IMG/VR virus record: IMGVR_UViG_3300018059_000013
DNA length: 64,000 bases
Source of the DNA: a virus
Strand: one strand, 5' to 3'
Made by a program: the position numbers and the translations under genes. Under the pieces are notes generated by a model. That model did no database searches. It had not been told where the DNA came from and worked only from the letters and a program-made list of their open reading frames with translations. This document shows, one piece after another, positions 1 to 38,887 of the stretch (within the stretch, counting starts at the first letter, position 1; the number at the start of each line of letters is the position of its first letter).

Positions 1-1468
1 TGGCTAGCCGAACCAAGTTTCGGATCTGGCGTCCGTTGAACTTGTGTTCTGCGAGGGAATCGAGAGTATTCTTCTCGATCTTCAGCTTCGCTGCTTCGAC
101 CATCCGTTGCCAGATCTTGGACCTTGCCTCGTTGTCGAGAGCCTTGTAGTTCACCCGAGCCGTGATGCGCGAGGCGAAGGCGGGATCGATGACGTCGACC
201 CGGTTGGTAGTGAGGAAGAGGGTTCCATCGAAGCCGTCGAGGAATTTGAGGAAGGTACCGACGATGGCGTTGCGCTCGATGTTGTCGACATCTCGCTTGA
301 CTAGGAAGATATCTGCCTCATCGAGGAGAAGGACAGCGTTCCATTTGGAAGCTCTTTCAAGGACCAGCTTCAACTTGTCCTCGACGCTGTTGAGGTCAAT
401 ACCAATCTCGCCGACGTCAGCGACGTAGAGGGGACGCTTGGAGTGCTCGGCCACTGCCTCTGCTGTGAGGGTCTTGCCAACTCCTGGAGGGCCATCGGCA
501 AGAATGACAGTACCACCGTGTCGCCCTCCAAAGATGTCACCGAATTGACACTCGGGCCCGGCGGAGAAGATCCGCTCGAACAGAGTTCGCACGTTGTCGG
601 GCATGACGACCTTGCCGAACCCGGCCGTGTCGTAGACATGTTCTGAGATGTTGTCGATGTGTACGTAACAGTACGCTTTGCGCTCGAGGAGAAAGACTCG
701 GACGAGAGGAATCACCTCATCGGTGTTGTCCGTGTTGTTGTACCACATCGCTTCTTGGAGCTCGAGATCGCACTCGACGATGGCCTTCTTGGAATTCGCT
801 CCAATCTGCACCTCGACGGGCATAGATCCCCAGCGCGATTTCACGTAGACGGGACCCTTGATCTGGACGAGCTTCCCTGTCAGTTCGGTCTGCATGCGAT
901 GCATGCGGCCCACGTCATCTGCGTGCTTCTTGTAGCTCGTCTCGCTGAACGGTTTAAAGTTCGCCTTGCTGAGGATCTCCTGCAACGTGAGATCCTTGCC
1001 GGTGGGATCTTTCATGTGCTCCGGATAGATGCTACGGTACTCGTTCTCCGAGTTGTCTCCGTAGTTGAACCCGAAACCGATAGTGACGCGGTTGCCCCAC
1101 GAATCGTCGCGGTAGCCGAGCTCTTTGATCGTGACGGGAAAGGTGAGCTTGCCAGCCTGCACGCCCACGATGTCCCCGCGACCCGCGACACCGCTCAACA
1201 GCGCCATGACCTCTTGAAGCGTCTTCGCCGTCTTGTTGAGGATCTCGCTGTGCGGGGTCAGGTAGTTCTCGATGAGGATCTTGATCTGATGGCCGTCGGC
1301 GTAGTGATCCCTCAGCTTGTTGAGGAACGTCTTCGGGACCTTGTTGAGGTAGATCGTCTTTTGGTCGTCGTCTGCTTCGTACGAATAGACGTAGATCGCC
1401 TTTCGCTCGACGCCGGCTTCCTTCGCGATCTTCTGGATGAGAGTTTCTTCGATTTTTATCGTAAGCAT
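1..1468 (-). CDS. AAA+ ATPase, paralog A (partial; C-terminal ~25 aa run off the window start)
   Basis: Reverse translation gives Walker A GPPGVGKT, Walker B LLLDEADIF, sensor TTNR and an arginine finger PAFASRI (SpoVK/CbbX-like SRI motif). The ATPase half aligns closely with ORF 8812..10365. Start ATG at 1466-1468. Confidence 0.8.
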   Translation of the reverse strand, partial: MLTIKIEETLIQKIAKEAGVERKAIYVYSYEADDDQKTIYLNKVPKTFLNKLRDHYADGHQIKILIENYLTPHSEILNKTAKTLQEVMALLSGVAGRGDIVGVQAGKLTFPVTIKELGYRDDSWGNRVTIGFGFNYGDNSENEYRSIYPEHMKDPTGKDLTLQEILSKANFKPFSETSYKKHADDVGRMHRMQTELTGKLVQIKGPVYVKSRWGSMPVEVQIGANSKKAIVECDLELQEAMWYNNTDNTDEVIPLVRVFLLERKAYCYVHIDNISEHVYDTAGFGKVVMPDNVRTLFERIFSAGPECQFGDIFGGRHGGTVILADGPPGVGKTLTAEAVAEHSKRPLYVADVGEIGIDLNSVEDKLKLVLERASKWNAVLLLDEADIFLVKRDVDNIERNAIVGTFLKFLDGFDGTLFLTTNRVDVIDPAFASRITARVNYKALDNEARSKIWQRMVEAAKLKIEKNTLDSLAEHKFNGRQIRNLVRLA

Positions 1469-1603
1469 GGAACCTTTTTCGTTGAAGGAATGAGTTCGAC
1501 CCACGAAAGGCCGAGTGGAACCACGTCCAAAGAAGCGGAAGGAGGTCGGAACGCCCCTCTAGTTGTTCCCCCCGGCCTCTCGTGGGTCGAACCCACGTGT
1601 CTG

Positions 1604-2137
1604 CTAGAGGATGGCCGCGCCGGCGGAAACGGCTGCGACGACGGTCTCGGCCGTCTTCTCGGCCGCGAGAGCTTCGAGCTTCTGGACGCGAACCTCGTTG
1701 TCCGCCTGCATCCTGACGATCGTCTTGATGAGACGCTCGGGCACCTTGATCTGGTTGTTCTCGTGCGCTTCGACGATGAGCTTCAGAACGTCGTACGGGC
1801 GGGTCGAGGTGCCCTTCTCGTTGTCGAAGACGGGCTCATCGAGCGTGAGCTGAAAGTACTTCGGCACGGTTTCGGCTTCGAATGCCTCTCCGTCGCTCGA
1901 GCGACGTTGTTTCGTGCATGTCGTCCTCTTGAGTTCGAGACGCTTGGTGACGATGCGACGGGAACGTTCACGATCCCACGTGTCCTTCGGGTTCTGCAGC
2001 GCATACGCCACTTCGAGAACGTTCTCGTCGACGGTGTATGCAATTGCGCCGATGGGCGTTCCCTTTCGAGGGAGCGCGCTCGGCTCGGTAGAAGGTTGCG
2101 TAGACTTGGTGCGGAGATAAATGACAGTGTTGTTCAC
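1604..2137 (-). CDS. hypothetical protein (177 aa) between X-A and ATPase A
   Basis: Protein-like ORF on the dominant strand; no recognisable motif. Confidence 0.5.
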   Translation of the reverse strand: MNNTVIYLRTKSTQPSTEPSALPRKGTPIGAIAYTVDENVLEVAYALQNPKDTWDRERSRRIVTKRLELKRTTCTKQRRSSDGEAFEAETVPKYFQLTLDEPVFDNEKGTSTRPYDVLKLIVEAHENNQIKVPERLIKTIVRMQADNEVRVQKLEALAAEKTAETVVAAVSAGAAIL

Positions 2138-2393
2138 GATTGCCTCCTTACGGCATTCTGTTGTTGGATGGAGATGTTAGATGTCGTACGTTCAGAGAAC
2201 TTCTACAAAACGGACGATGTCGTTCTCGATCAGAAGAGAATCTTCTGCGGGCAGGTGTCGACGATCGCTGTAATTACGCCTCTAGAGCGTTTGGTGTTGA
2301 AGCGACATGACATGCCCACACTCTCGCACAAAGTGTGCGCTTCCTCCGGTGAGAGTCCTACGAGAACTTGGAGGAAGTCTGTCGGGAAATTGT

Positions 2394-3332
2394 TCAGCGA
2401 GAGGAAGCTCCTGCGACCATGCGCTGCGAGGAGGGTTTCTCTGTTTCGGAGTCTTCCTCTTCTGACTGTGCAATCTCGACGACGTTCGTCGTACGGCTCG
2501 GAGCCGACTCTGTGACTCGAACCTTGGAGTCCTCGGCAGAAGATCCGCCGGGAAGCATGTCCAGGGCCGATTCGATGATGGGGGTGATGTGATCGATGAC
2601 GTTGTCCGCGAGGAACGCGCCGGCCGTTGCCATGCCCGCGACGCGGAACTCCTTGGCAAGACGCTTGACCCGGGGATCCTTCTTGATCCTTGCAGGGGCG
2701 AGATACGTCAAAGCGTATCCCGCTGACGCCTGGATGAGTGCCTTCCCCATGGGGGTGTTGAGCACCGCCTCGACTCCCTCTTTCGTGGCGCCATCGCCCA
2801 TCTTGGCCATGATTGCGAGTGCAATCATCTGGCGTGCACCCTCGGCGATCTTATCGGAGGCGACCCGGAACGCTGCGTCGGCGCTGTCGCTCTTGAATGT
2901 TTCGAAGAACGATTGGGTTTCTTCTTCTGGAGCAGAAGGTCGGCTGGTGGTCGTTTTCACTTCTTTCTTACCCTTCTTGGACGCCAATTCGCCGATCTGA
3001 AACGCGTGTGCATGGGTAGTCGACAGGGTGAGAAACCTGTTCTTTCCCGCGTTCATCTGCACCTCCTCACGGAACTCCATGGCGACGCTCGCTATGGAGG
3101 GTGCGCCTGTGTAGTTCTGGTAACCCGCCGGTTGGGGGAGGTCTTTGTCGAACATGATGACCACGTTCCCCGCACCATTCGTGCCGATGATCTTGGCCTT
3201 GATCTTCCGAGCTTTCGATGCCTTGTGATCGAAGTAGTTCGTCGTGTCGATGGCAGTACCCGAGTTGGGCTTCTGCTGGATGAGAGTGATTTCTTTGCCC
3301 AGGTCCTTCGCCCAGGGATCCGTAATTGCCAT
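2394..3332 (-). CDS. X-family protein, copy A (312 aa); function unknown; paired with AAA ATPase A
   Basis: C-terminal ~150 aa (EGVEAVLNTPMGKALIQ...DPRVKRLAKEFRVAGMATAGAF...LDMLPGG) aligns with the C-terminus of ORF 12041..13192; ATG confirmed at 3330-3332. Confidence 0.7.
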   Translation of the reverse strand: MAITDPWAKDLGKEITLIQQKPNSGTAIDTTNYFDHKASKARKIKAKIIGTNGAGNVVIMFDKDLPQPAGYQNYTGAPSIASVAMEFREEVQMNAGKNRFLTLSTTHAHAFQIGELASKKGKKEVKTTTSRPSAPEEETQSFFETFKSDSADAAFRVASDKIAEGARQMIALAIMAKMGDGATKEGVEAVLNTPMGKALIQASAGYALTYLAPARIKKDPRVKRLAKEFRVAGMATAGAFLADNVIDHITPIIESALDMLPGGSSAEDSKVRVTESAPSRTTNVVEIAQSEEEDSETEKPSSQRMVAGASSR

Positions 3333-3662
3333 TGTTGAGCCGTTCCTTCTTTCTTCCGACCAGGGAGAAATCTTGCTGAGAGTTAAAAAACTAAAACTAG
3401 GGATCGTGAATGACGTGACAGAAGACGAGGTGCAAAAGGACCAATCGATATTTGGTATCGAATAGCTACCTGTATGAGTCCCGGTGTAGCTTTAGGAGGA
3501 ACGAGAGAGTTAGATGCCACCGGTACTGGCAGGGCGGAATGTGCTGGTACCCGTACCTCGTTAGATCCGTTAGATCCCGTTCCCAGTTCTGTCCAACCTC
3601 AATCAGCTTGAAGCATTTAGCGCACGCTTTCGTGCCGACCTCGGTAATGCCGTCCACCGATC

Positions 3663-4049
3663 CTATACGCTCTGGATGTGCTTGATCGCCTCAGTCCGGG
3701 AGACGTATACGATCTTCCCTTCCTTTTGGATGGGGACGAGATCGCTCCCGGACTCCGGCTCTGGCTCCGGAATGTACATCGCGGGAGGAGCGCTGACGCA
3801 GGCTGAGACTGAGTACGCCGATGTGACGGGTTGATCTTTTTTCTTGAAGACCGGCCTCTGGTCGGGATTCTCATCCAACCACTTCGTGTACGTCGCAGGT
3901 GATACAGAGATCTCCTTGACGATCTCCCTCCCACGACCGATCTCGACTCCATCCTCATCGCAGTAGACCCGTTCCCGAGTCTCTACCACGATCTTTTTCA
4001 TCTTCTCGCCGGGTCTGGTGACTCTACCGGTCTTTTCGCAACGAAACAT
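3663..4049 (-). CDS. hypothetical protein (128 aa)
   Basis: Minus-strand ORF with protein-like composition. Confidence 0.45.
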   Translation of the reverse strand: MFRCEKTGRVTRPGEKMKKIVVETRERVYCDEDGVEIGRGREIVKEISVSPATYTKWLDENPDQRPVFKKKDQPVTSAYSVSACVSAPPAMYIPEPEPESGSDLVPIQKEGKIVYVSRTEAIKHIQSV

Positions 4050-4081
4050 GCGGGCTCCTTATTCTATTCTAGTGATTAAGC

Positions 4082-4318
4082 TTAGAGCTTGAGTTCCCAC
4101 AAGCTCGTGTAAGTTATGGTGTGTTCGCAGGGGTCTTCGACGCTCGTGTACCACTCGCCGAATTGGGGGTTTGGGGCTTCGAACACGTGCGCCTCACCGC
4201 ATCTGCAGATCCTGGGAATCTTTATCTTGATCGGGACGTCCCCGACGATCCCATTCTTTGGGATGACGATTTTCACAGAATCTCGTGTGCCATCGTCGTC
4301 CATGTTTGTCTTCAGCAA
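4082..4318 (-). CDS. hypothetical small protein (listed start is TTG; ATG 5 codons in)
   Basis: ORF directly downstream of conserved promoter 4346..4378. Confidence 0.4.
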   Translation of the reverse strand: MLKTNMDDDGTRDSVKIVIPKNGIVGDVPIKIKIPRICRCGEAHVFEAPNPQFGEWYTSVEDPCEHTITYTSLWELKL

Positions 4319-4345
4319 TACCGTTTGGCATTCAATGCCACGTGT

Positions 4346-4378
4346 TTAATTGTAACATCTGACCCATTCGAATTCATC
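4346..4378 (-). promoter_or_regulatory. conserved promoter motif, instance 1: GATGAAT...TGTTACAAT (extended -10)
   Basis: Reverse complement reads GATGAATTCGAATGGGTCAGATGTTACAATTAAAC; same architecture as 13 other sites. Confidence 0.55.
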
Positions 4379-4580
4379 ACTCGGATGTTCGAATTTGTTC
4401 TCGGACCGATGCCTCCAAAGTTGAAGGGGTTTGGACCCAGAGACCGTACTGTTCCCGTGAAAGACCTAGATACTCGTGCAGCGGCCCGTCATCCGCTGGG
4501 GATTCGTGCCACCTGTCGACCCAATCGTAGATCTCGTCGATCGTTGCGATACCTTCTTTGACCGCTTGAACGAAAGTCAT
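4377..4580 (-). CDS. hypothetical small protein (67 aa)
   Basis: Minus-strand ORF. Confidence 0.35.
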   Translation of the reverse strand: MTFVQAVKEGIATIDEIYDWVDRWHESPADDGPLHEYLGLSREQYGLWVQTPSTLEASVREQIRTSE

Positions 4581-4702
4581 GCTTTACTCCGTAGAAACCG
4601 AGGCCTTTTCCGCAAGGGCCCGAGCCCCTCCTCTATTTCTTGTCAAGGTGGGCGCGAGCACACCTCCAGAAGCGCCGCAGATCGCTCTACTGATCGGAAG
4701 TT

Positions 4703-5296
4703 CTAGTACTTGTACTTGAAGCGATCGATCTCGTCTGGGAACATGATCGCCTTCACTTCTCCCCCGACGGCACGCAGCACGTGCGCATCGATGGCTCCGT
4801 GTTCGAGATCCTGGTAATCGTACAGCTTGAAAGATGCACCCTTCTTGATCGTACCTCCGCCCGAGCAGGGCATGTCGTACTTTGCGATGTAGGTCGCACC
4901 AGCGACAGCTCGATCACCTACGTACGCTTTGGATCGTCTTCGAGAGCTCCCCCTTTGGTACAAGGTCTTGTGATCATTGAAGACAGCGATGATCGTGGGC
5001 ATGATCTTCGCATGGACGCGTTTGAAGCGCTCTCGGAACCACGACCGGGGCCGTGAACACTTGGTGAAGCGTGTGATGAATTGAACCTTACCCATCGACG
5101 ACATGTTTCGGATGACCTCGTGGGCGAGGTCGATCTCGGCGTCCGAGCACTTCTCGTAGGACACGAGACGCAGCGCATTAGTGACATCGGGTTCGATGTC
5201 ATCGATGAGCTCGTCGGTCGGATAGATCTCGAACCCAAAATCGAGACGCTTGAGCTGTCCCCTGGATAGGGACGAAAATTTGAGCTGTGGTTCCAT
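4703..5296 (-). CDS. Y-family hypothetical protein, tandem paralog 1 (197 aa)
   Basis: Shares NALRLV...EIDLAxE(V/I)...RPRSWF...KI(M/F)P with the adjacent ORF 5309..5938. Confidence 0.55.
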   Translation of the reverse strand: MEPQLKFSSLSRGQLKRLDFGFEIYPTDELIDDIEPDVTNALRLVSYEKCSDAEIDLAHEVIRNMSSMGKVQFITRFTKCSRPRSWFRERFKRVHAKIMPTIIAVFNDHKTLYQRGSSRRRSKAYVGDRAVAGATYIAKYDMPCSGGGTIKKGASFKLYDYQDLEHGAIDAHVLRAVGGEVKAIMFPDEIDRFKYKY

Positions 5297-5308
5297 TTTG
5301 GTCCTCGG

Positions 5309-5938
5309 TCAGAACCTCCCCGCGAATTCGCAGGGAAACACGATGAGCCGGTGATTCACGGACTGATGACACTCGTTCTTCGTCACCCCTACATGAAATG
5401 TAACGTCCCAGGCGTTGTGTTCGAGTTGCGTCTTCGAGATGATGTCCACGAAGGACCCTGTGCCGATCCCTCTGGTGGGTGATATGGCGAGCGGTGTCGT
5501 GGTCTTGTGCCATCCGTACAGAAGAGAAGGAGCGGAACACGCGCCCGGGTGGCTACGGCGCATTCCCCAAGAGGCGTACGGACCGTACTCGTTGACATTG
5601 TTGATGAGCGGGAAGATCTTTGAAGAGATCACGATCATTCGAGCATCGAACCAGGACCGAGGGTAGTTTCCTTCATTTCTGGAGAAGAGAGACCAGAAGA
5701 GAACCCTCGCCGACGTCGAAGTCCGTTTCAAGATTTCGACTGCAAGGTCAATTTCCTTCTCTTCGATCTCTTCGCGGACGGTGACGAGACGCAGCGCGTT
5801 CATGATTGCTGGATCGACTCGCTTGAGAAGGCTCGGTGCGACCTTACATCCGAGATGCCAATCGAGCATGCAGATCTGCTCGTTGGTGAGTTGATTGAAC
5901 TCTACACCCAATGAACCGTATGTCCCGCTGCACTTCAT
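5309..5938 (-). CDS. Y-family hypothetical protein, tandem paralog 2 (209 aa)
   Basis: Paralog of 4703..5296. Confidence 0.55.
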   Translation of the reverse strand: MKCSGTYGSLGVEFNQLTNEQICMLDWHLGCKVAPSLLKRVDPAIMNALRLVTVREEIEEKEIDLAVEILKRTSTSARVLFWSLFSRNEGNYPRSWFDARMIVISSKIFPLINNVNEYGPYASWGMRRSHPGACSAPSLLYGWHKTTTPLAISPTRGIGTGSFVDIISKTQLEHNAWDVTFHVGVTKNECHQSVNHRLIVFPCEFAGRF

Positions 5939-5941
5939 GAT

Positions 5942-6433
5942 TCACTCCTCTTCGACGAAAAAAAACACGGCGGCGGTATCCTCTTCCGAGGAGTCTTCCA
6001 AGTTATGTTCCATCATGACAGTCGCGACCCATCCGCCCTTCGATTTGCGGAAGATGGATTCACGACACTTTTGCGGAATCAGCTTGAGCTTCTCGAGCGC
6101 TCGAACAACGGGATCGTCCGTCGGTTCTTCTGACACGGGAATCTCAACACGGGAGAATTCGTTGGCGAGAACTTTCTTTTCGATGGAGGAGAGGACCTCG
6201 GCACAGGAGGTCCCTGTGCCGGTCCATTGGGCGCGAAGCTCCTCTGCGTCGAAGATGGTTCCATCATCCGGAATGCCCAACTTGCGAGCGTGCGAGCAAA
6301 AGATCTTCTCCGCACTTTCATCTTCGATCTCGACCTCTTCCTCACTGAAAACATCTTGAGGATCTGGTTCGCCGCCCAACATCGTTCGTCTGTTAGCGAT
6401 CGGTGCCTTCTTGGCCTTTTTCTTCTTGACCAT
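5942..6433 (-). CDS. hypothetical acidic protein with K-rich N-terminus (163 aa)
   Basis: Minus-strand ORF; start abuts the stop of 5309..5938. Confidence 0.45.
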   Translation of the reverse strand: MVKKKKAKKAPIANRRTMLGGEPDPQDVFSEEEVEIEDESAEKIFCSHARKLGIPDDGTIFDAEELRAQWTGTGTSCAEVLSSIEKKVLANEFSRVEIPVSEEPTDDPVVRALEKLKLIPQKCRESIFRKSKGGWVATVMMEHNLEDSSEEDTAAVFFFVEEE

Positions 6434-6436
6434 CGA

Positions 6437-6748
6437 TCACTTTGTGGCCTTGGGCGTACCGGCACCTCGCTTGCGCTTCGCCGCGCGGGTCGCCTGACGC
6501 TGCAACTCGATGATTCCACCCTTGCGCTTGCGCCGATCTTCCTTGTCGGACTTGCGTTGGGCAGGACTCTTGTTGAGATGCCAACTCTTCACGGCGAGTT
6601 TCTCCTCTTCCCTGCCCTCGACCATCAATTCTCTTGCGAGTTGCTTGAGCGAGATGAACCGGTTGCCAATGATGGCTCTGCGGTGGAGACGCTTGAGAAC
6701 CTTGCCTGCCTTCATAATACGATACCTCTCATTCGACGGAGCTCTCAC
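6437..6748 (-). CDS. hypothetical highly basic protein (103 aa)
   Basis: K/R-rich, nucleic-acid-binding-like composition. Confidence 0.4.
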   Translation of the reverse strand: MRAPSNERYRIMKAGKVLKRLHRRAIIGNRFISLKQLARELMVEGREEEKLAVKSWHLNKSPAQRKSDKEDRRKRKGGIIELQRQATRAAKRKRGAGTPKATK

Positions 6749-7286
6749 TGAGCTCGTCCTCTTCGTTGCTGTCGATGAAAATGATCTTCGCTCCGATGAT
6801 CTCGTCCTGCTCGTTCTTCATGACGAAGCAGTCGTAACATCCATCTCCCACACCGGAGCTCGACACGGCTCCGAATTCTCGGATGATTCCTGCACCGGGT
6901 GCTTCCAACGTCAATTCACAGGCCTCGTTGTAAAAGGAACCTTCTTCCCCGTACTCTCCGAGGTTTCCAAATGGATACAGTTGGAAGTCGAAAAAACCCG
7001 CTTGGCCAGAGTCGACACCGACCTGGAAGTCCTGCGCCTTCATCCAGGTGGAGGAGTATCCAGCATCGACGTCCGTGGACTCGTGAAAGATCTGCAGTTC
7101 GCAGACCCTGTTGCCCCACCCTTCCAAGTCTCCCTTGAGAATGAACGCGTTCCAAGTTCCGGGCTTGACTCCTTCGAGTTCTCCGCGGATTTCCTTGTCG
7201 GTCCCCAGGTCGTAGCACGGATCGCTCACAGCCATCTTATTCGAGAGTTGAGAAAAACTGCCCAAGCGGGTTCTGTTCATGTTCAT
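6729..7286 (-). CDS. hypothetical protein (185 aa)
   Basis: Protein-like minus-strand ORF. Confidence 0.5.
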   Translation of the reverse strand: MNMNRTRLGSFSQLSNKMAVSDPCYDLGTDKEIRGELEGVKPGTWNAFILKGDLEGWGNRVCELQIFHESTDVDAGYSSTWMKAQDFQVGVDSGQAGFFDFQLYPFGNLGEYGEEGSFYNEACELTLEAPGAGIIREFGAVSSSGVGDGCYDCFVMKNEQDEIIGAKIIFIDSNEEDELSESSVE

Positions 7287-7576
7287 TCGATCACCAAAGT
7301 TAGGACACGCAGTTAAGAAACGCCCGAAGGACGAAGGGAGAAGAGAGAACGAGAGAGGTCGACAATAAAGGCTGAGAGCTTCCCTCTTGCGGAGGATACT
7401 AAGTGCTCAGAGCTGAATGCTGCAAAGGGTCTAACTGCTGAATGCTGACTGCAGCGTCATTATCGTTATTGTTAATTGATTCCCTTTCGGGAGCCGGTAA
7501 TTACCTGTTCAGGGTAATGAATCAACCGTCTGTTCGTTCTCTTTCTCGCCTTCGCCCTCCGAACTCTGTTACCGGA

Positions 7577-8083
7577 TCAGGCCTTCAGGACCGTCCGATG
7601 ATTTGTCGTTTCGACGGCATCGTTGAGTGCGTCGAACTTCTCCTTGAAACTCTTGATCGCATCGGCCTGCTTGGCCTTGGGCAGATCGCAGCGGAACTCG
7701 TGCGTCGCCTTGACACGTTGCATGGCGTCGTTGTACTCGAACGAGTCTTCGTTCGATTTCTCATGGTCGCGCACAGGCAGACTTTCGATGAACTTGATCT
7801 GTCCCTTGAACTCCTCGAGTTGACGAGTGGCCTGCGAAAGCGTCATTTCCTTGCCGTCGTACTTCACCGTCGTGAGAGCATTGGTGACAGCGAGCCGGGA
7901 CTGAAGAGTCAGGAGCTCCGAACGTGCGGCCTGCGCCTTTTCCATGCAGTCGTTGAACTTGAACGCCGGCTCACGACCGACCTGGTACGACACCGATCCG
8001 GTAGCTCGTTGAGTGTGTTCGGCGATCTCGCCCTTGAGTTTCTTGATACGACGGAGTCCTTGAGAAATGGTCAGATCTGACAT
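7577..8083 (-). CDS. hypothetical coiled-coil protein (168 aa)
   Basis: Helical, heptad-like composition; the overlapping 212-aa plus ORF is an antisense shadow. Confidence 0.5.
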   Translation of the reverse strand: MSDLTISQGLRRIKKLKGEIAEHTQRATGSVSYQVGREPAFKFNDCMEKAQAARSELLTLQSRLAVTNALTTVKYDGKEMTLSQATRQLEEFKGQIKFIESLPVRDHEKSNEDSFEYNDAMQRVKATHEFRCDLPKAKQADAIKSFKEKFDALNDAVETTNHRTVLKA

Positions 8084-8365
8084 GCTGGTTATCCTATCCC
8101 CAATGAGCGATGGTTACTAAATGGATGGACATGTGATCCTTCCACGAGACGAAGTCGAAATAGATTTTCCCGTTGTGGAGAAAGACGGCCAATTCTCCTA
8201 TGAGTGATGGTCGAACATTTCCCATGTACAGGACGTAGTCACCTACGAGAACGCGTGATTGTCTGCATGCATCCCTTGCGACGTTTTGGTAGAGGTAGAA
8301 TTCCGTTCGTACATGGAAAAATTTTGGATCCGAATTAAAACCTGGTCATGTCTCAGGATGACGGA

Positions 8366-8575
8366 TCACGTCGGGAACTCTACGAGATGTCTCGCGCTTG
8401 TCTTCAGAGAAAGAAGGTCTCGATGAACGATTCCTTGGAAGAAGTACAAGGCATCATGATTAGAGATCGATCCCAAATACAGGATGATATCATCCTTGCG
8501 AACGGTGGTTATGTTGCTGGTTTCGTTGATGTTCGTATATAGGAAGATGTCTTCCATAACTCGAAGCAGGATCAT
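8366..8575 (-). CDS. hypothetical small protein (69 aa)
   Basis: Locally AT-rich; weak. Confidence 0.25.
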   Translation of the reverse strand: MILLRVMEDIFLYTNINETSNITTVRKDDIILYLGSISNHDALYFFQGIVHRDLLSLKTSARHLVEFPT

Positions 8576-8806
8576 TCACATCTTCTCGAAGTATCGATCA
8601 TCAATTAGGGCTTTTGGGCCCCACCGTCCGGGTAACCATCCGCGCCCGCCGCTGCTGAGCAGGTATGCGTGGTATCCCGCGGAGTTGTCATTCGCTATTA
8701 TCCACCCAAGGTAAACCACGATCCCACCCGCGGGGATTAAATACAATCTCGTGTGCGGTTTGAGTTGGATGTAGAGGCTAACGCCTTTGGTAGCTCGAAG
8801 CAACAT
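8576..8806 (-). CDS. hypothetical small protein (76 aa)
   Basis: Weak; contains an LIPAGGIVVYLG stretch reminiscent of the small-protein families. Confidence 0.25.
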   Translation of the reverse strand: MLLRATKGVSLYIQLKPHTRLYLIPAGGIVVYLGWIIANDNSAGYHAYLLSSGGRGWLPGRWGPKALIDDRYFEKM

Positions 8807-8811
8807 CAGGA

Positions 8812-10365
8812 TCAGGGCTTACGGGCATTGATCATCGCGATCTTTTCCAATTCAGCGGGGGGTAGTTCACCCGACGTGGGGTGGATGATGCGAACCAACC
8901 TCACGCAGTTACGAATCTCTCGGCCATTGAGATCGATCGCCGAGAGCGCAGAGATATCTCCCAAGGGGAGAATCTTCGCCTTGGCGAGCATGAGCTCCCA
9001 AATCTTCTGACGACGGTTGCTGTCGAGATCCGGGTAGTCCAACCTGACCGTGATGCGCGATGCGAACGCCGGGTCGAGCACCTCGGTGCGGTTCGTGGTC
9101 AGGAAGAGAGTTCCCCTGTACCGGTCGAGCACTCGAAGGAACACACCGACGATGGCGCTGCGCTCCAGCTCCTCCTTCGTACGTTCGGCCATGAAGATGT
9201 CGGCCTCGTCCAAGAGGAGGACGGCATTCCAACGGGTGACTCGTTGAAAGATCGTGTTGAGCGAGGATTCCACCTGGGCCACGTTGGTGCCGAGCTCGGT
9301 GAGATCGATCGAATACAGGGGACGCTTCATCGTGTGAGCGTACACCTCGGCCGTGAGGGTTTTTCCCACACCGGGTTTACCGGCCGCAAGGACGATGACT
9401 CCACCGTGGCGGTCGTTGAAAATGTCTCCGAAACCCTCGCTCCCGTTCCAGTTAAAGAGCGAGGTGAGGATGCTCTTCATGTTGTCGGGAAGAACGAGCC
9501 GCTCGTTCGCCTTCTCATCGTACTCGTACTTCTTCAGATTCTCGACGTCGATGTAAACGTATTCCTTCGTGTCGAGAGAGAAGCAACGTACCAGAGGTAG
9601 ATGTTTGTAACCAACCGATTGTTCGCTGTGGCGCGCACTTCTCGGATTGGATTCCATGTCAGGTTCGATCACGACACGTCCGATGTAGCCGAGAGGCAGA
9701 ACAACGGTCGGATCCCACCAAGTCGCGGACGTCTTGATTGCTTGACCGGTGCAAACGTACTGCGCACCCATTTCGTCCTTCGAGAGACGAATACACTCGA
9801 GGCGACTGGTCTTCCATCGAGTCAACGTTTCCTCTTGAATGGGACGCATGCCAGACGACGAAAGGATACTCCGAACGGTAGCTCCACCCATTTCAGAAAG
9901 GGTGTTCTCACCCAACGAGACAGATTTCGTGATGTTCTCCATACCGTCTGGCATCATGGCGATGGTCATGTTGGTGTAGAGGTACTTGCCAATGAACCCT
10001 TGTTCTAACTGACAGGCGGTCAGGAAGATCGGGTAGGATTTCCCAGCGAGCGTGAACTCGAGAGTCGGTTCGCTATCATCCTGAAGACGAATAAGGATGT
10101 TCGAAAACTTGATCAGGCTGGTCTGGGGTTCATCGAACTCCGCGTCGGAGACCCGATCACCCAAGAGCTTCCTGATCGCCTGTTTCGCCGCTGCACCGAG
10201 ACGCCCATTTCGGAGCAAAGCGCTGAGAATAGGCGGCGCGAGCTCTGCGAGCTTGACAGTCGTGTTTGCCGCGGCCGGATCCAAACCCACGATCTCCGTG
10301 TGTTCGATTCCCGCGTTCGCGGCGGCAGAGATGAGCTTCTTCGTATTGATCGAAAGTGATTCCAT
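8812..10365 (-). CDS. AAA+ ATPase, paralog B (517 aa): divergent N-terminal domain plus C-terminal classical AAA module
   Basis: Walker A GKPGVGKT, Walker B LLLDEADIF, TTNR, PAFASRI. ATG at 10363-10365 with AAGGA Shine-Dalgarno 8 nt upstream. Confidence 0.85.
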   Translation of the reverse strand: MESLSINTKKLISAAANAGIEHTEIVGLDPAAANTTVKLAELAPPILSALLRNGRLGAAAKQAIRKLLGDRVSDAEFDEPQTSLIKFSNILIRLQDDSEPTLEFTLAGKSYPIFLTACQLEQGFIGKYLYTNMTIAMMPDGMENITKSVSLGENTLSEMGGATVRSILSSSGMRPIQEETLTRWKTSRLECIRLSKDEMGAQYVCTGQAIKTSATWWDPTVVLPLGYIGRVVIEPDMESNPRSARHSEQSVGYKHLPLVRCFSLDTKEYVYIDVENLKKYEYDEKANERLVLPDNMKSILTSLFNWNGSEGFGDIFNDRHGGVIVLAAGKPGVGKTLTAEVYAHTMKRPLYSIDLTELGTNVAQVESSLNTIFQRVTRWNAVLLLDEADIFMAERTKEELERSAIVGVFLRVLDRYRGTLFLTTNRTEVLDPAFASRITVRLDYPDLDSNRRQKIWELMLAKAKILPLGDISALSAIDLNGREIRNCVRLVRIIHPTSGELPPAELEKIAMINARKP

Positions 10366-10424
10366 CTAAGTGTCCTTAAGTTTAAGAGGAGAAACGAGCG
10401 CGCCGTACGCTTACTTCCTCTTCT

Positions 10425-10643
10425 TCATTTTCCGTGACGCTCGCATGTTGATTTTCTCTTTGTACGAGCATACCCATTCGTCTCCTCAAATCCACCCGCT
10501 AACTTGACTCCGATCACCCAGCCAGCGAAGGCCATTACGATGTTCAGAAGGCCCCACATCCATCCCCACATAATGAATGCAGACGGAATGAAGATCGCCT
10601 GAAACAGAAAGACGACCCGAAATCTGTAGAGAAAATCTCTCAT
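10425..10643 (-). CDS. small membrane protein (72 aa, two predicted TM helices)
   Basis: Hydrophobic segments FLFQAIFIPSAFIMWGWMWGLLNIVMAFAGWVIGV. Confidence 0.4.
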   Translation of the reverse strand: MRDFLYRFRVVFLFQAIFIPSAFIMWGWMWGLLNIVMAFAGWVIGVKLAGGFEETNGYARTKRKSTCERHGK

Positions 10644-10945
10644 GTCTTTCCCGCAACTTCTCGGATCTGTGCAAGCACCCGGTCAGGATCGAGCTCTGCT
10701 ATTTTGATCTCTTCGAGTCTCTGCCACTCCCTCTGAACGTCATTCTCATTGTAGACGAAGACATCGCATGTCTTCCCACGGGAGGAAATGAGGATCGGCA
10801 TCGCGTTCTTCACAGAAGCGTACACGATGGATCCGTAGAGATTCGCAATCTGGACCCACGGCGTTTTGGAATACTCCAGCGCAGCTGAGGGGAACGTGCG
10901 GACGAAGTGGATACGAGATAGGAGCTCGATCCTGACCCCGCTCAT
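10640..10945 (-). CDS. hypothetical protein (101 aa)
   Basis: Minus-strand ORF inside module B. Confidence 0.4.
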   Translation of the reverse strand: MSGVRIELLSRIHFVRTFPSAALEYSKTPWVQIANLYGSIVYASVKNAMPILISSRGKTCDVFVYNENDVQREWQRLEEIKIAELDPDRVLAQIREVAGKT

Positions 10946-10948
10946 CCG

Positions 10949-11197
10949 CTATTCCGTACTGGTCGGAGTGGGATCGACCTCGACAGGGGAACAGATCGGA
11001 ATGACCCTCGGACCGACGCGTCCACGGGTGACATGGGGTGCCGCACCTCCCTTGCGACCTGCCTCTCGGGCCTCGGCAGCGTTGAACACGTGCGCCGTTC
11101 CCGCCGCGTGAGCAGCCTTTCCGCCCAGCGAAGCGATGAGCTTCACCTTGTTCGGATCCATCAAAGCAAATCCGCGCTTGTTCTTGTTCTCGTTCAT
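10949..11197 (-). CDS. KGG-repeat general-stress-protein-like small protein
   Basis: N-terminus GFALMDPNKVKLIASLGGKAAHAAGTAHVFNAAEAREAGRKGG resembles the KGG stress motif (YciG/GsiB type). Confidence 0.45.
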   Translation of the reverse strand: MNENKNKRGFALMDPNKVKLIASLGGKAAHAAGTAHVFNAAEAREAGRKGGAAPHVTRGRVGPRVIPICSPVEVDPTPTSTE

Positions 11198-11266
11198 GAC
11201 CGTTCCTCCTTGTGGTTACGGGGCAATCTCCCGCAAACTTATTAGCACATCCGAACAGACCGACCG

Positions 11267-11965
11267 CTAACCCTGGGTGCCGACTGCCTTGTCGTCCACG
11301 ACGACGGTGACCTTCTCGTCTTCTTTGACGAGCTTTCCAACTTCCGCGACGAAATCGTCGGACTTCTTCTGCATACCCTCTCCGACTTCCATCCGAGCGA
11401 AGCGACGGATCTGGATGTTCTCACCTAGCTTCGCGACGAGCGCCAGCCGAAGCTGTTCGATCGTCTGCTTGGGATGGTGGATCGACTCCTGCTTGGAGAG
11501 GCACGCTTCCGTGAACCACTTTTCCATCTTCTCGGTGAGGATCTTTTCATGCATCTCTGTGGGAGTGTCCTTGATCTGCTCCCTGAAGATCTCGCGCTGG
11601 GTGTTCGCTTCGACGCTGTTGTAGAGCTTCGACGATTCCATGTCGACGTACGTCGGGTTCATCCCGGCGACTTGCATCGCGACCTCTTCACAGAAGTTCA
11701 CGAAATCCTCGTTCTTGGCGACGAAGTCGGTCTCGCAGTTCACTTCGACGATGACTGCTATCCGATTTCCCAGATGGATGTACGGATGGATGCGACCCTC
11801 GCTTGCGATTCTCGTTCCCTTCGCCACCGCCTTCGCGATGCCCTTTTTCTGGAGGATGACGAGCGCACCGTTGATGTCTCCCTTCGCTTCTTCGAGGGCC
11901 GCCTTGCAGTCTCCCAGGGGAGCGTTGGATCGTTCTCTGACTTCTCTGACTTGTTCGATGGACAT
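11267..11965 (-). CDS. tsf: translation elongation factor Ts (EF-Ts), short form (~232 aa)
   Basis: MSIEQVREVRERSNAPLGDCKAALEEAKGDI...VEVNCETDFVAKNEDFV...LVAKLGENIQIRRFARMEVGEG...DDFVAEV matches EF-Ts N-terminal UBA-like and core motifs. Listed start 11971 is TTG; ATG is at 11965. Confidence 0.85.
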   Translation of the reverse strand: MSIEQVREVRERSNAPLGDCKAALEEAKGDINGALVILQKKGIAKAVAKGTRIASEGRIHPYIHLGNRIAVIVEVNCETDFVAKNEDFVNFCEEVAMQVAGMNPTYVDMESSKLYNSVEANTQREIFREQIKDTPTEMHEKILTEKMEKWFTEACLSKQESIHHPKQTIEQLRLALVAKLGENIQIRRFARMEVGEGMQKKSDDFVAEVGKLVKEDEKVTVVVDDKAVGTQG

Positions 11966-12040
11966 GCTCAAGCTCGCTTCTCTCGACTCCCGAGGATCGT
12001 CTCACCCCGGGAGGGGCTGGTGTTTCTTCCGAAGAGACGA

Positions 12041-13192
12041 TCACTTGCCCGCGACGGCCTTCTTCCCTTCCACGAGAACATCGGAGAGCTCGAGAAGCTC
12101 CTCCTCTGCCTTGACGTCCACCGCGGGGGACTCGGTCGGAGCGGCGATGCGTGCGTTGGTGACCGTCTTCTCCTCGCCACCGGGCAGCAGAGCGAGAGCG
12201 TCGTTGAGGACGGGCATCAGGTGCTCCATCACTCCACCGACGACCATGTCGAGACCTTCGGCCGTTCCCTGGATGCGGAACTCGGCGGCGAGCTTCTGGA
12301 GACGAGGATCAGCTGCCATACCTCCGACGTTCTGTCCCGCCATCGTGATCCCCCAACCCATGACGAGCTGGGTGAAAGCGACGCCGGCAGGAGACTTCAT
12401 GATGGCCTCCACGCTGGCGCCGTGCTCGGGACCGAGAGAGTTCTTCAGGACCTTGCACACGATGGTCGAACCACCCTGGCTGATCCGCTTGCCGGCGACT
12501 CGGTAGGCGGCCTCTTCGCCGTCGGACTTCACGATTTGGAACGCGGTCTTCTTCTCGGTCATTTTAGTCTCCTTCACTTCGGTTGCTGCTACTGCTACTG
12601 CGGGTTTGTCTTCCCAGGTTTCGGGGAGCGCTTTCGTGGACGACTTCTCTTCCAGATACTCCTTCGCTTCTTCGGGAAGGAGATCCGCCTCGGTCGCGTC
12701 GGCGACCTCTTCGGTCTGGCTGAGATGCCAGAAGGTGTGACCATTCAAAGCCGTTTTTCTTCCGAAGGAAACGTGATCCGAGACTGTGTACATCGTGTCG
12801 GGAGACAACCTGAACCCCTGAACCGGAGATCGCTTGTCCACCTTCAAAATGAAGTTCTTGTTGTCGTTTTGGCCGACGACTGTACCGACCATCGCACCGG
12901 CATTCGTCTGGAACTTGATCTGTTTTCCGATCTCGACCTTGCTCATGTAGACTCCATTCATGGTCCAAGTACAGTTCGGCCACGCCGAGCACCCAGTGAA
13001 TTCTTTCTTGGTGTATCTGTTAACTTTCGTGACGCCCAGAGCGCCGCACCTGGGGCACATCTTGGGAACTGGTGTCGCTGCGGCGGCAGCCTTTTCTTTG
13101 GCGGCTTTCTTCTTCTTCGCAGCGGTCGCATTCTTTTTACGGGTCGTGTCGCACGTCGAACACACCAATCCTTTCGGACACAAATAAGACAA
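12041..13192 (-). CDS. X-family protein, copy B (383 aa), with an N-terminal topoisomerase-I-type C4 zinc ribbon and K/A-rich linker
   Basis: CPRCGALGVTKVNRYTKKEFTGCSAWPNCTWT zinc ribbon; C-terminal 150 aa homologous to 2394..3332. Confidence 0.7.
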   Translation of the reverse strand: MSYLCPKGLVCSTCDTTRKKNATAAKKKKAAKEKAAAAATPVPKMCPRCGALGVTKVNRYTKKEFTGCSAWPNCTWTMNGVYMSKVEIGKQIKFQTNAGAMVGTVVGQNDNKNFILKVDKRSPVQGFRLSPDTMYTVSDHVSFGRKTALNGHTFWHLSQTEEVADATEADLLPEEAKEYLEEKSSTKALPETWEDKPAVAVAATEVKETKMTEKKTAFQIVKSDGEEAAYRVAGKRISQGGSTIVCKVLKNSLGPEHGASVEAIMKSPAGVAFTQLVMGWGITMAGQNVGGMAADPRLQKLAAEFRIQGTAEGLDMVVGGVMEHLMPVLNDALALLPGGEEKTVTNARIAAPTESPAVDVKAEEELLELSDVLVEGKKAVAGK

Positions 13193-13219
13193 GAGTCACA
13201 CTGCTTTCGATTCGCCCTC

Positions 13220-13705
13220 TTACGTCTTCTTGGGTTCGTCCTTGGGCCACCACTCGCCGTCGGCTTCGGTGCCGAAGCGATACGTCGACCAGATCTCAGC
13301 TTCCTCGATGGAGGAGTGACGAGCCACCACGATGACAACCGGAGCGGGCTGCTCCGGATAAGTTAATGCGAAGCCCGCGGACTGTCGGGGCATGTTCATG
13401 ACGTTCTTAGAGAAGTCCGGATAGCGCCGCATGATCTTCGGCTTACGAGGAAGCCAAGTTCGCAGACGGGGTCCTCGGGGACATTGGATGATCGTGCCCG
13501 CAGGGCAATCCTCCGCCGAAGATTTGAGAGTCACCGATTCGTGCTCGGGAGCCGGCTCGATCCGACCCTTCTTCGAACTATGAAGATTCTTACAGAAGTT
13601 GAATGCTAGCACGAAACCCGGAAAAACGATGGTATCAACCTTGCCCCCACGAAAGAACACAACACGATGGTACCTGGAGTTCTTCAAGATATCGTTCTCT
13701 TGCAT
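13220..13705 (-). CDS. hypothetical protein (~161 aa)
   Basis: Downstream of conserved promoter 13724..13756. The ATG at 13705 is preceded by GGAGG; the listed start 13720 sits at the predicted transcription start. Confidence 0.45.
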   Translation of the reverse strand: MQENDILKNSRYHRVVFFRGGKVDTIVFPGFVLAFNFCKNLHSSKKGRIEPAPEHESVTLKSSAEDCPAGTIIQCPRGPRLRTWLPRKPKIMRRYPDFSKNVMNMPRQSAGFALTYPEQPAPVVIVVARHSSIEEAEIWSTYRFGTEADGEWWPKDEPKKT

Positions 13706-13723
13706 TCCACATGCCTCCATTTT

Positions 13724-13756
13724 TCAATTGTACCACCGGACCATCGCAGATTCATC
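13724..13756 (-). promoter_or_regulatory. conserved promoter motif, instance 2 (GATGAATC...TGGTACAAT)
   Basis: Reverse complement reads GATGAATCTGCGATGGTCCGGTGGTACAATTGAAAA. Confidence 0.55.
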
Positions 13757-13816
13757 ACAGTGATATTTCCGATCTGACCTACCCTCAGATAGCAATAGCA
13801 AGTTCGTCGGACTCTG

Positions 13817-14416
13817 CTAAAGAGCACTCTCCGTCTTCTTGATTCTCTTGACCATGTCTCGAAACTTCTTATCTTCGAATAGGAGCGTCTCTCGAGGGTG
13901 GAGTTCTCTTTCGATCTCTGCGAGCCGGATGCGTAACCCTGATCGTTCGTTCTTCAGGAGAATTTCTCGAGAGATTCCTCCTTTTCCCTTGGAATGAAGC
14001 CATTTCCAAATGGGAATCTTGAACTCTCCATCCGCAATCCAAGCACAACGTGCACACATGGTCGCGACGAGCGATGGCCATTTGAAGGTTTCGCCCGAGG
14101 ACGTGTGAACGATCTTTTCGGACTGGATTTCATCGAGCTGTTCGTTGCACTGGGAGCAGATCCAGTTACCAGTCGTGGGAGCCCTCAGGAATCCTGCTTT
14201 CTTGACGAAGAGACGGCAGTTGCGTTTGACGAGCGCGACGTTGATGCGATTGATTAACCAACCGAAAGCTCGGGAGATCATGAGAAATCCTTCGAAACGT
14301 ACTTTCCCGTGAAAATGTCGACGTAGATAGCTCTGCTCCGCAGCGAGCCGTTCGTCCACCAAATCGAAACTCCCGAGTACCTGCCGTTGTCGTGGGAAAG
14401 TCGCAGCGCTCTCCAT
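13817..14416 (-). CDS. hypothetical protein with CxxC...CxxC zinc-ribbon-like motifs (199 aa)
   Basis: CSQCN...CARCAW motifs. Confidence 0.45.
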   Translation of the reverse strand: MESAATFPRQRQVLGSFDLVDERLAAEQSYLRRHFHGKVRFEGFLMISRAFGWLINRINVALVKRNCRLFVKKAGFLRAPTTGNWICSQCNEQLDEIQSEKIVHTSSGETFKWPSLVATMCARCAWIADGEFKIPIWKWLHSKGKGGISREILLKNERSGLRIRLAEIERELHPRETLLFEDKKFRDMVKRIKKTESAL

Positions 14417-14769
14417 AACAAACGGGCCATCCGGGCTGAGCCTGCATCTCCGCCTCGGAGGAATTTGCCCGGTACGAATGATCCTGTGTTCTCTGCGACG
14501 CTAGGCTGCTTGGCCAGCCGGGACAGCAGTCTCACTGACGACATCGAAGTAGAGCTCCTGTTCGATCGCGAGACAGTAGAACATCTTCAGACCAAAACTA
14601 GTGAAGACGATGAAGTAACGCCGAACGCCTTCGTCTGTAGTGCCGAGGATGGTGAATTGATCTCCCTTGCAGAGTGTCACCCCGCAGGGACAGAGAGTTG
14701 CACCGAAACGGCTTGCACATTGGTAATCATGCGTGAAGATCGTGGACTTTGCTCGACATTGGGCACTCT

Positions 14770-15027
14770 TCACGTTTCCGCCGTCTTCTCGAATTGGCCG
14801 CAGCCCTGGTGCTCGAACGTGAGGAGTCCGCTCCGGTGCGACTTGGCATTCGTGCAAACGCCCCAGTCCATATCCGGACCGAGATCTGCGGGGTTGTAGA
14901 TCGGAGTGAAGAAGTTGCAACCTCCCGAACAGTCACCCCCGTCTCGTTTGGTCGCGCCGTAGGGCTCGTAATCCTGCGGAAGATTCTTCACGATCGTCAA
15001 AAAGCGTTTGTGATTGGGCGTGTTCAT
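14770..15027 (-). CDS. small Cys-rich protein (85 aa)
   Basis: CSGGCNFF...WGVCTN...EHQGCGQF; GC3-biased codons. Confidence 0.4.
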   Translation of the reverse strand: MNTPNHKRFLTIVKNLPQDYEPYGATKRDGGDCSGGCNFFTPIYNPADLGPDMDWGVCTNAKSHRSGLLTFEHQGCGQFEKTAET

Positions 15028-15320
15028 AGCGTATCCTCTACGACTTTCAAGTACTTGTGGTCAATGTGAAAATTGATCGATGGTTCGATTAGGCAGAGCA
15101 ACCTCTGTTCGAACAGAACAGGGTACCTTCCGAAGGTCGATCCCACCTCAAAGGACATGTCTCCCAGGACAACAAGGTGACTTCTCTTCTGGATCTGGAC
15201 CGTGTTCAATCCGAACACCATCGTAGTTTGATCTCGGGCGACCAACCAGCTGAAGTTCGCAGCTATCACCCGTAGAAGAATTCCCTTGCGGAACGCTGGG
15301 AACACTGGAGCTTCGATCAT
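15024..15320 (-). CDS. hypothetical protein (98 aa)
   Basis: Start/stop overlap with neighbouring genes. Confidence 0.4.
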   Translation of the reverse strand: MIEAPVFPAFRKGILLRVIAANFSWLVARDQTTMVFGLNTVQIQKRSHLVVLGDMSFEVGSTFGRYPVLFEQRLLCLIEPSINFHIDHKYLKVVEDTL

Positions 15321-32750: not shown

Positions 32751-32822
32751 CGATCCCGGCGAGGTTCGAACTCGCGTAAACGGAGTGAAAATCCGCTATC
32801 CTAACCGCTAGATGACGGGACC
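32751..32822 (-). tRNA. tRNA-Glu (anticodon TTC)
   Basis: Cloverleaf: acceptor GGTCCCG/CGGGATC, T-arm GCGAG-TTCGAAC-CTCGC, anticodon arm GCGGA-TTTTCAC-TCCGT; CCA not encoded. Confidence 0.8.
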
Positions 32823-32833
32823 GTGAAGTTCAG

Positions 32834-32905
32834 CTGGTCGAGGCGGAATCGAACCACCGGCGCCCCTTTTCCGGGGCGTACTCGTGCCACTTGAGCTACC
32901 GACCA
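32834..32905 (-). tRNA. tRNA-like gene with a non-canonical anticodon arm (type undetermined)
   Basis: Good acceptor, D-arm (G18 G19) and T-arm (GGTGG-TTCGATT-CCGCC). The anticodon region ACGCCCCGGAAAAGGGGCGCC can only form a 6-nt (GGAAAA) or 8-nt (CGGAAAAG) loop, never 7. Confidence 0.5.
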
Positions 32906-35710: not shown

Positions 35711-35782
35711 TAGGGGATGAAGGATTCGAACCTCCATACGGCGGGTCAAAGCCGCCTATTCTAGCCGTTGAATTAATCCCCT
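35711..35782 (-). tRNA. tRNA-Gln (anticodon TTG)
   Basis: Acceptor AGGGGAT/ATCCCCT, D-stem ATTC/GAAT, anticodon arm GGCGG-CTTTGAC-CCGCC, T-arm GGAGG-TTCGAAT-CCTTC. Confidence 0.8.
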
Positions 35783-36293: not shown

Positions 36294-36316
36294 TTCTTTT
36301 AAATTGGTCAAAGCAG

Positions 36317-38633: not shown

Positions 38634-38887
38634 TCTAGCTCCCCAAATCGGAATCTCAAGTTTGGGAGGGAAGAACGCACCGTTCGACCGACCCAGAGTT
38701 GAACGCCCGATTGCGTTCTTTTTAGCCCGGTGTTTCTCCGGGTATGCGTGCGCTAAGCGCTGTCTTTGTCCCTAGGCTTGCTGCTTGGCGGTGCTTCGGG
38801 ATCGATATCGTGACGCCGTCGAGGAAGGAAAATTTCAGCTCCCATAGAAGGACTTCTTCATGATGTTTCTCCTTTCTCAAAGATTCG

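Follow-up and report, generated by a model that had tools for sequence, protein, structure and literature searches.

The first 13,192 nucleotides of the viral DNA studied here (IMG/VR virus record IMGVR_UViG_3300018059_000013; the whole analyzed stretch of 64,000 nucleotides is further referred to as the window) twice bring together a gene for a protein of a family that we call X and a gene for an AAA+ ATPase. The question raised by this locus is whether the X proteins and the ATPases work together, and if so, in what capacity. A first-pass annotation, made from the sequence alone, had described a duplicated two-component module with swapped specificity domains and offered two explanations: a diversifying selfish, defense or counter-defense system, or a remodeler paired with its adaptor. 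All genes that it listed were recovered on the minus strand, which carries every gene in positions 1–16000 of the window. The first arrangement consists of X-A (312 aa, positions 2394..3332), a small conserved gene orf177 (1604..2137) and the gene of ATPase A (1..1468). The latter encodes the first 489 of 526 residues, the C-terminal 37 residues lying beyond the window start; the full-length gene is found in an identical NCBI contig (L008:11865-13445). In the second arrangement, X-B (383 aa from a TTG start, or 374 aa according to gene callers; 12041..13192) is separated by several small genes from ATPase B (517 aa, 8812..10365), which is accessory within the lineage. In this study the locus is interpreted as two different gene families adjoining in one lineage of uncultivated huge phages. 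The link between X and the ATPases is facultative, and the two genes do not form an obligate module. The interest of the locus lies on the X side; the ATPase side is ordinary.

The X family

Word-indexed searches retrieve close relatives of the X proteins only, and the family as a whole is found by an exhaustive HMMER search with an X alignment. The profile matched 1013 cluster representatives (clusters at 50% identity) at E ≤ 1e-3, and 459 at E ≤ 1e-10. The common domain is helical and about 130 aa long, with motifs K.D...A.YRVA, G..L.Y.P and DPR..LA.EFR..GM and a terminal LP. It occupies the extreme C-terminus in all 160 proteins examined, at most 23 residues following the profile envelope; the lengths of these proteins range from 116 to 3283 aa. 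The domain is followed by a tail of the general pattern LP..VRV..poly-Glu..Lys/Ala, which was characterized in 151 representatives. The median tail length is 40 aa, an R[VIL] motif such as VRV is present in 83% of the tails, and Glu accounts for 21% of the residues. Net charge is +1.7 in the last eight residues, where Lys occupies position −5 and Ala positions −3 and −1 from the end, and about −5 in the part of the tail preceding them.

The N-terminal parts are very variable, being mostly small beta-barrels, repeats or zinc ribbons. Comparison of 82 of them with Pfam was almost empty, isolated matches being to MazE/AbrB-like, SH3-like and pentapeptide domains and to a PolyA_pol head. The genes often form tandem arrays, with four copies each in L095, L097 and L103 and three copies in L119. 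One of the four tandem paralogs of L097, which have quite different N-termini, encodes a 586-aa protein (L097:11289-13046) with a zinc-ribbon-like cluster of Cys residues at the N-terminus and MORN-like repeats.

X-A and X-B belong to no Pfam, PHROG, NCBIfam or PADLOC family, and X is not a housekeeping family. A sequence search of PDB, both with single sequences and with the profile, yielded nothing below an E-value of 0.1, and fold and sequence comparison gave no link to a scaffold, a targeting domain or a known adaptor. The 50,697 deposited phage genomes gave no tblastn match to X-B or to a stand-alone X domain of consensus-like sequence. Motif-seeded DNA and peptide scans of IMG/VR and of 185,579 GTDB species genomes, which see only the members that retain the motifs, yielded chance matches only. 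X is a large, previously unannotated family that, to judge from these searches, appears confined to uncultivated huge phages.

X-A consists of a small beta domain, the helical C-terminal domain, recognized by the family profile with E 1.3e-50 (hmmsearch), and a tail. The helical domain (approximately residues 140–262; positions 2547..2915, minus strand) was delimited from an AlphaFold2 (AF2) model and the family profile. It carries the motifs KSD..AAFRVA, G..LTYLAP and DPR..LAKEFRVAGM followed by LP, and is modeled as two helices of about 40 residues together with short helices, with predicted local distance difference test (pLDDT) values of 82–90. The tail (2397..2546, minus strand) is predicted to be disordered (pLDDT below 50, model residues 139–182) and contains a KVRV motif, an acidic stretch and a short end, RMVAGASSR, of basic and small residues.

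In X-B, a Cys-rich N-terminus is followed by a small beta domain, the X C-domain (profile E 4.6e-44, hmmsearch) and a tail. The helical domain spans approximately residues 214–340 (12173..12553, minus strand), and the AF2 model of the full-length protein is poor (pLDDT 50). The topoisomerase-I-type zinc ribbon initially ascribed to X-B may be retained as a candidate C4 ribbon at residues 46–77 (12962..13057, minus strand): the CPRC...C..C pattern is present, but the match to PF01396 (Zn_ribbon_Top1) scores 25.4 bits (E 1.2e-5), below the cut-off of 32. The X-B ortholog of L007 keeps the ribbon in frame. In L005, a relative from groundwater, insertion of a gene for an IS605-family TnpB/OrfB protein (380 aa, L005:7482-8624) immediately upstream of the X-B ortholog has eliminated the zinc-ribbon N-terminus.

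The identity between X-A and X-B, 31% over 151 aa of the C-terminal part (E 1e-22), is no higher than that of either protein to unrelated members of the family (medians 34% and 30%). In a neighbor-joining (NJ) tree of 165 C-domains, one clade of 16 sequences takes in the groups of both X-A and X-B. The shared domain reported in the first-pass annotation is thus real, but the claim that the two proteins share nothing else is doubtful, given that their small N-terminal beta domains may be distantly related (hhalign E 8e-4, probability 24%).

Linkage of X with AAA+ genes

Both X-and-AAA+ arrangements are retained in the divergent relatives L011 (a 349-kb contig) and L012, and the first one (X-A, orf177, ATPase A) is also found in L014 and L124. 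A second lineage shows a similar gene order with a different ATPase. In L095, L099, L208 and L209, a gene for an X protein of approximately 295 aa is followed by an open reading frame (ORF) of approximately 100–118 aa and then by a gene for a Clp/Hsp100-like ATPase. Between these phages, the X proteins are 48–58% identical and the Clp-like proteins 47–64% identical. At the stop codon of the X gene there is an overlap of about 11 nt with the small ORF (L095:10869-11213), whose product contains a motif, LPxIRVRAEE..KVKKFATA, reminiscent of the LP..VRV..E of the X tails. The Clp/Hsp100-like genes (L095:11259-13649, L099:11281-13662, L208:5023-7398, L209:3168-5578) were assigned by their set of Pfam domains, comprising Clp_N, AAA, AAA_2 (219 bits), AAA_lid_9 and ClpB_D2-small. 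In D1, both Walker A (GDSGVGKRS) and Walker B (ILFINGIE) are degenerate, and the pore loop of D2 is GYAQ rather than GYVG. In L209 the Clp-like gene is broken into two ORFs, of 537 and 265 aa.

A functional link is argued chiefly from the recurrence of the order X, small ORF, AAA+ with AAA+ proteins of two unrelated clades. This order is seen in two of about twelve lineages, which corresponds to P ~0.01 under a crude null model that assumes some two unfoldase-type AAA+ genes per 300 kb and a downstream window of 1.5 kb; this is our own arithmetic, and the value is optimistic given the functional clustering of phage genes. We tentatively favor, with somewhat less than even confidence, the reading that X proteins are clients or adaptors of AAA+ remodeling machines, which they would contact via the C-domain and tail. 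The C-domain and tail would be the part engaged by the ATPase, and the variable N-terminus would be the part delivered, or else the binder of a target. An adjacent phage-encoded AAA+ protein would act on X, that is, ATPase A or B at the studied locus and the Clp/Hsp100-like protein in the other lineage; elsewhere another ATPase would serve, either that of the host or one encoded at a distant site of the phage genome. The remodeler-and-adaptor alternative of the first-pass annotation thereby gains some support from the lineage with the Clp/Hsp100-type ATPase, with the reservation that neither partner's link is obligate.

The same layout, a partner gene beside an AAA+ gene and a variable recognition part joined to a constant one, is known from ClpS-ClpA, SspB-ClpX and MecA-ClpC. 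A phage context is shared with the MoxR-vWA pair noted in jumbo phages (PMC7824862). In contrast to these systems, X has no sequence or fold similarity to known adaptors, and its linkage is facultative. A further-reaching version, which we consider unlikely, is that the C-domain with the tail is a portable docking or degron module, by which a repertoire of N-terminal domains and the host proteins captured by them are handed to AAA+ unfoldases of the phage or the host. If this were true, X would be an expandable family of phage adaptors that remodel or destroy host proteins, and the tandem arrays would be the record of an arms race.

Several observations weigh against a client or adaptor role. 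L007 and L005, with X-B proteins 75% and 68% identical to that of the window, respectively, keep X-B, EF-Ts, KGG, orf101 and orf168, but have neither ATPase B nor orf76, a small gene downstream of ATPase B (8576..8806, minus strand; absence established by blastn and tblastn). Homology to the window ends at about position 10411 in L007 and 10539 in L005 and resumes at about 8569 and 8087, respectively, so that ATPase B and orf76 form a clean presence/absence cassette of 1.85–2.4 kb. At the cassette site (window positions 8570–10410), these two contigs have unrelated small ORFs (L007:10457-10690 and L005:11005-11785). Since X-B is retained in L005 and L007 without ATPase B, the pair is not obligate. 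Outside the lineage, no X gene (E ≤ 1) was found within 6–8 kb of the ATPase gene in 80 viral and 80 bacterial loci. The fixed two-component module initially proposed does not agree with these data, and the occurrence of the pair in other genomes is confined to related huge phages as far as these 160 loci are concerned. The ATPase has no conserved neighbor at all: the largest cluster of neighbors covers 7 of the 85 loci in the viral set, and the bacterial clusters are limited to related taxa. The upstream neighbor of the ATPase gene in Rhizobium phage B1VFA was considered as a candidate X and rejected, as it is not X-like. Conversely, in about ten other groups of X loci (two of them with 8–10 kb of flanking DNA), inspection of the available DNA revealed no P-loop NTPase with the exception of one FtsK-like protein. 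Moreover, related phages keep gene order whether the genes are functionally linked or not. Finally, the position of pore loop 1 is occupied by ELGTN in the HMMER alignment with VAT, opposite its KYYG, and by [EQ][LI]G, with no aromatic residue, in all eight aligned members of the family. The K-[YFW]-[VIY]-G pattern of threading unfoldases is not found between Walker A and Walker B of the window ATPases; given the lack of the aromatic residue, classical threading of the tail is not obviously available to them.

These facts bring in the explanation by synteny only, which we regard as plausible while rather doubting it. It states that X and the ATPases, adjacent in a non-structural, "dark" part of the genome, are functionally independent of each other. 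The role of the X C-domain would then be oligomerization or targeting, by which the N-termini are brought to a structure of the host or one built by the phage, such as the capsid interior, a compartment or a membrane, and the ATPases would be host-derived chaperones with other substrates. It is consistent with the persistence of X-B in the absence of ATPase B, with zero X genes in the 160 outside loci, with the stand-alone state of the ATPase in bacteria, and with the tandem X arrays of L097 and L103, which contain no ATPase. A constant C-terminal module behind variable "cargo" N-termini is the layout of targeting domains, as in scaffold fusions and encapsulin cargo, and by this analogy X may resemble such domains. 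At the same time, X shows no fold or sequence link to scaffold or targeting domains, and no PHROG structural family is present among 93 neighbors of X genes. Neither does mere adjacency account well for the repeated order of X, small ORF and AAA+ with two AAA+ families and for the overlapping genes of the Clp lineage.

AAA+ proteins of jumbo phages have been proposed to be assembly chaperones or translocases (PMC7824862). This proposal suits independent neighbors, and it also suits a third explanation, by which X is a virion-internal cargo that the adjacent AAA+ or Clp protein unfolds and translocates into or out of the prohead, as in the BCS1/ClpA-type idea. The numerous paralogs of up to 3283 aa with a common C-terminal module, and the adjacency of AAA+ to X in two lineages, are what could be expected of such cargo. 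We nevertheless find it improbable, as there are no structural genes near the X clusters, the ATPase homolog of the Bacillus jumbo phage AR9 is located behind an early promoter, and the ATPase is also a chromosomal gene of bacteria.

The ATPases and the defense hypothesis

BLAST aligns ATPases A and B over 332 aa with 40% identity (E 1e-81), confirming the reported relatedness of the two copies. Both are classic-clade AAA proteins by sequence: they score 68.9 and 67.7 bits, respectively, with Pfam AAA (PF00004, cut-off 21.2) and have Walker A (GPPGVGKT and GKPGVGKT), Walker B (LLLDEAD) and sensor-1 (TTNR) motifs. The segment before Walker A and the ASRI context, pointed out earlier as a pre-Walker-A segment and an SRI arginine-finger context, are present and kept across the whole family. 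The closest solved structures are those of classic-clade AAA proteins (VAT, E 3.6e-12); a PDB match to Ctap1, an FtsH-like AAA protein of generic type, was discarded. Walker A, Walker B and the sensor-1 TTNR are common to the window ATPases and the classic unfoldases VAT, Cdc48/p97, FtsH and PAN. Unlike these, the window ATPases have a single AAA module and one Arg in ASRI instead of the RPGR-type second region of homology.

The two proteins match phrog_29662 (E 8.7e-44 for A and 5.8e-43 for B) at profile positions 287–519 of 548, the N-terminal half remaining unmatched. The members of this family, AR9 gp082 / PBS1 gp276 and B1VFA gp045, are 30–43% identical to the window ATPases over the pre-Walker-A segment and AAA module, and, like them, are single-AAA proteins of approximately 520–600 aa. 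They differ in that their gene neighbors are unrelated to X, and the window copies are closer to genes of Planctomycetota. The window ATPases are new members of a known, functionally uncharacterized family. This family may be related to the architecture DUF7025-AAA-AAA_lid_13 (PF22942/PF00004/PF23232): B1VFA gp045 scores 27.5 bits with PF22942, just above the cut-off of 27, and has a weak AAA_lid_13 match (E 0.0017), and the window ATPases reach neither PF22942, to which they have no match, nor PF23232 (E 0.05–0.06). A literature search yielded nothing relevant on DUF7025.

The first 300 or so residues of the two ATPases had been described as unrelated. The BLAST alignment of A and B, however, starts at residue ~161, or at ~110 if the A ortholog of L011 is used, and in a profile-profile comparison residues 1–157 of A are colinear with residues 1–160 of B and of the Planctomycetota homologs (probability 80%, E 1.4e-5). 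Therefore A and B are diverged full-length paralogs, homologous from end to end. The N-domains diverge gradually among orthologs, and in both the ATPase and X families the N-terminal regions evolve faster than the C-terminal ones; the swapped specificity domains of the first-pass annotation are diverged homologs. Orthologs of A and of B in the related huge phages L011 and L012 are each about 63–70% identical to the window proteins, and A and B are only about 31–40% identical to each other, hence the paralogy is old. A trivial recent segmental duplication, considered as a way to dismiss the locus, was rejected on these grounds, the paralogs being ancient.

Relatives of the ATPases were found in at least 84 IMG/VR stretches and in at least 434 stretches of species-representative bacterial and archaeal genomes. 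The phage relatives include those of the Bacillus jumbo phages AR9 and PBS1, annotated there as "ATP-dependent protease", and of the Rhizobium phages B1VFA, V1VFA-S and RHph_X66. Among 80 viral loci, L058 (IMG/VR 3300002461_000812) is the only other one with two ATPase copies within about 17 kb. ATPase B is 38–39% identical over residues 1–496 to genes from metagenome-assembled genomes of Isosphaeraceae, Gemmataceae, Pirellulaceae and Planctomycetaceae. These Planctomycetota homologs (L128-L134) are flanked by PEPCK, SecA, sulfatase, DUF1559 and cyclase genes and therefore are chromosomal. The AAA module of B is 55–56% identical to the Planctomycetota genes and 48% identical to that of A, and in an NJ tree built without bootstrap B groups with the Planctomycetota genes, A being outside. 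Because B is closer to these genes than to A, a recent block duplication within the phage is disfavored. The ATPases are of host-like origin, their nearest full-length relatives being chromosomal genes of Planctomycetota.

It remains to consider whether X and AAA+ could constitute a duplicated module that diversifies its specificity domains as a defense, counter-defense or selfish system. Two such arrangements within 13 kb, the faster evolution of the N-terminal regions in both families and the common NJ clade of the X-A and X-B groups could be read in this way, as could AAA-level matches to the anti-phage ATPase IetA. The latter, though, reflect generic AAA similarity only: the IetA/IteA (Ietas) models give 46–52 bits in PADLOC and 49.5 and 42.8 bits in NCBIfam, where the cut-off of the IteA model NF042959 is 510. 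An IetA/IteA-type defense ATPase was accordingly rejected, and no IetS-like protease partner was seen. PADLOC has no match for X-A, X-B or orf177. The homologous, unswapped ATPase N-domains argue against specificity exchange, and both the affinity of B to Planctomycetota genes and the fact that X-A is no closer to X-B than to unrelated X proteins misfit a simple block duplication. Furthermore, the pair is not conserved outside the lineage, ATPase B is dispensable, and the genes reside in a phage, outside bacterial defense islands, with the nearest relatives of the ATPases being ordinary chromosomal genes. We consider this explanation very unlikely and the least supported of all, and there is no evidence for a defense system at the locus.

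The source phage, its other genes and implications

The source of the window is an uncultivated huge phage of roughly 320–350 kb. X-B is encoded on a 322,706-bp metagenome contig in ENA, and a 350,418-bp NCBI contig (GCA_902730045.1) matches the window without differences from X-A to ATPase A. Both contigs are phage-like, and gene content points to an uncultivated huge phage: there are genes for PolX, DNA ligase, a VapE-like protein, an SPFH protein, a trypsin-like protease and EF-Ts, three tRNAs supported by Rfam, and many short unknown genes on a single strand. The SPFH/Band-7, trypsin-like serine protease, VapE-like and nucleoside 2-deoxyribosyltransferase-like genes are located at 47541–48755, 56351–57346, 44269–45426 and 35790–36542 (minus strand), respectively. 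The Rfam-supported tRNAs are those for Glu (32751–32822), Gln (35711–35782) and Thr (41392–41463). Two more tRNA-like calls by ARAGORN, at 32833–32905 and 38887–38964 (minus strand), have undetermined two-base "anticodons" and get no support from Rfam; they may be spurious, or represent tRNAs of a degenerate or unusual kind.

Between X-B and ATPase B, four genes lie on the minus strand. The 234-aa phage-encoded EF-Ts (11267..11971) scores 166.9 bits with TIGR00116 (cut-off 104.05), being shorter than the 293 positions of this model, and the 82-aa KGG-repeat protein (10949..11197) scores 34.3 bits with PF10685 (cut-off 20.4), so that both identities assigned at first stand. EF-Ts is absent from the syntenic loci of L011 and L012 and hence is a later, lineage-specific insertion between X-B and KGG. 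They are followed by orf101, a conserved unknown gene (10640..10945) found at the same position in L005, L007, L008 and L012, and by orf72, encoding a small hydrophobic peptide (10425..10643) and partly conserved in L007. In the other arrangement, orf177 has no match in Pfam, PHROG, NCBIfam or PADLOC; its orthologs occupy the same position in L012 (59% identity), L011 (34%) and L014. The 135 bp that separate orf177 from ATPase A include a hairpin immediately 3' of the orf177 stop codon, CACGTGGGTTCGACCCACG (approximately 1575–1595, minus strand). Its loop is similar to the T-arm of a tRNA (GGTTCGA), and the hairpin may act as a terminator or processing site or be what is left of a tRNA. Two unknown tandem paralogs of 197 and 209 aa (4703–5296 and 5309–5938, both on the minus strand) are 30% identical over 172 aa (E 5e-18). 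A scan of bases 1–14000 for promoters and terminators was uninformative.

The relatives of ATPase B suggest that the host of the phage is a member of Planctomycetota. A literature search retrieved nothing relevant on huge phages of Planctomycetes, and the ATPase result is the first lead to such a host for this lineage of huge phages. The X family comprises more than 1000 clusters and has had no Pfam or PHROG model, no relative with a solved structure and no match among deposited phage genomes. Its domain, the signature of its tail and its habit of forming tandem arrays provide an annotation handle on the "dark matter" of huge phages, and the occurrence of X beside two unrelated families of AAA+ proteins makes the client or adaptor hypothesis testable with a few recombinant proteins.

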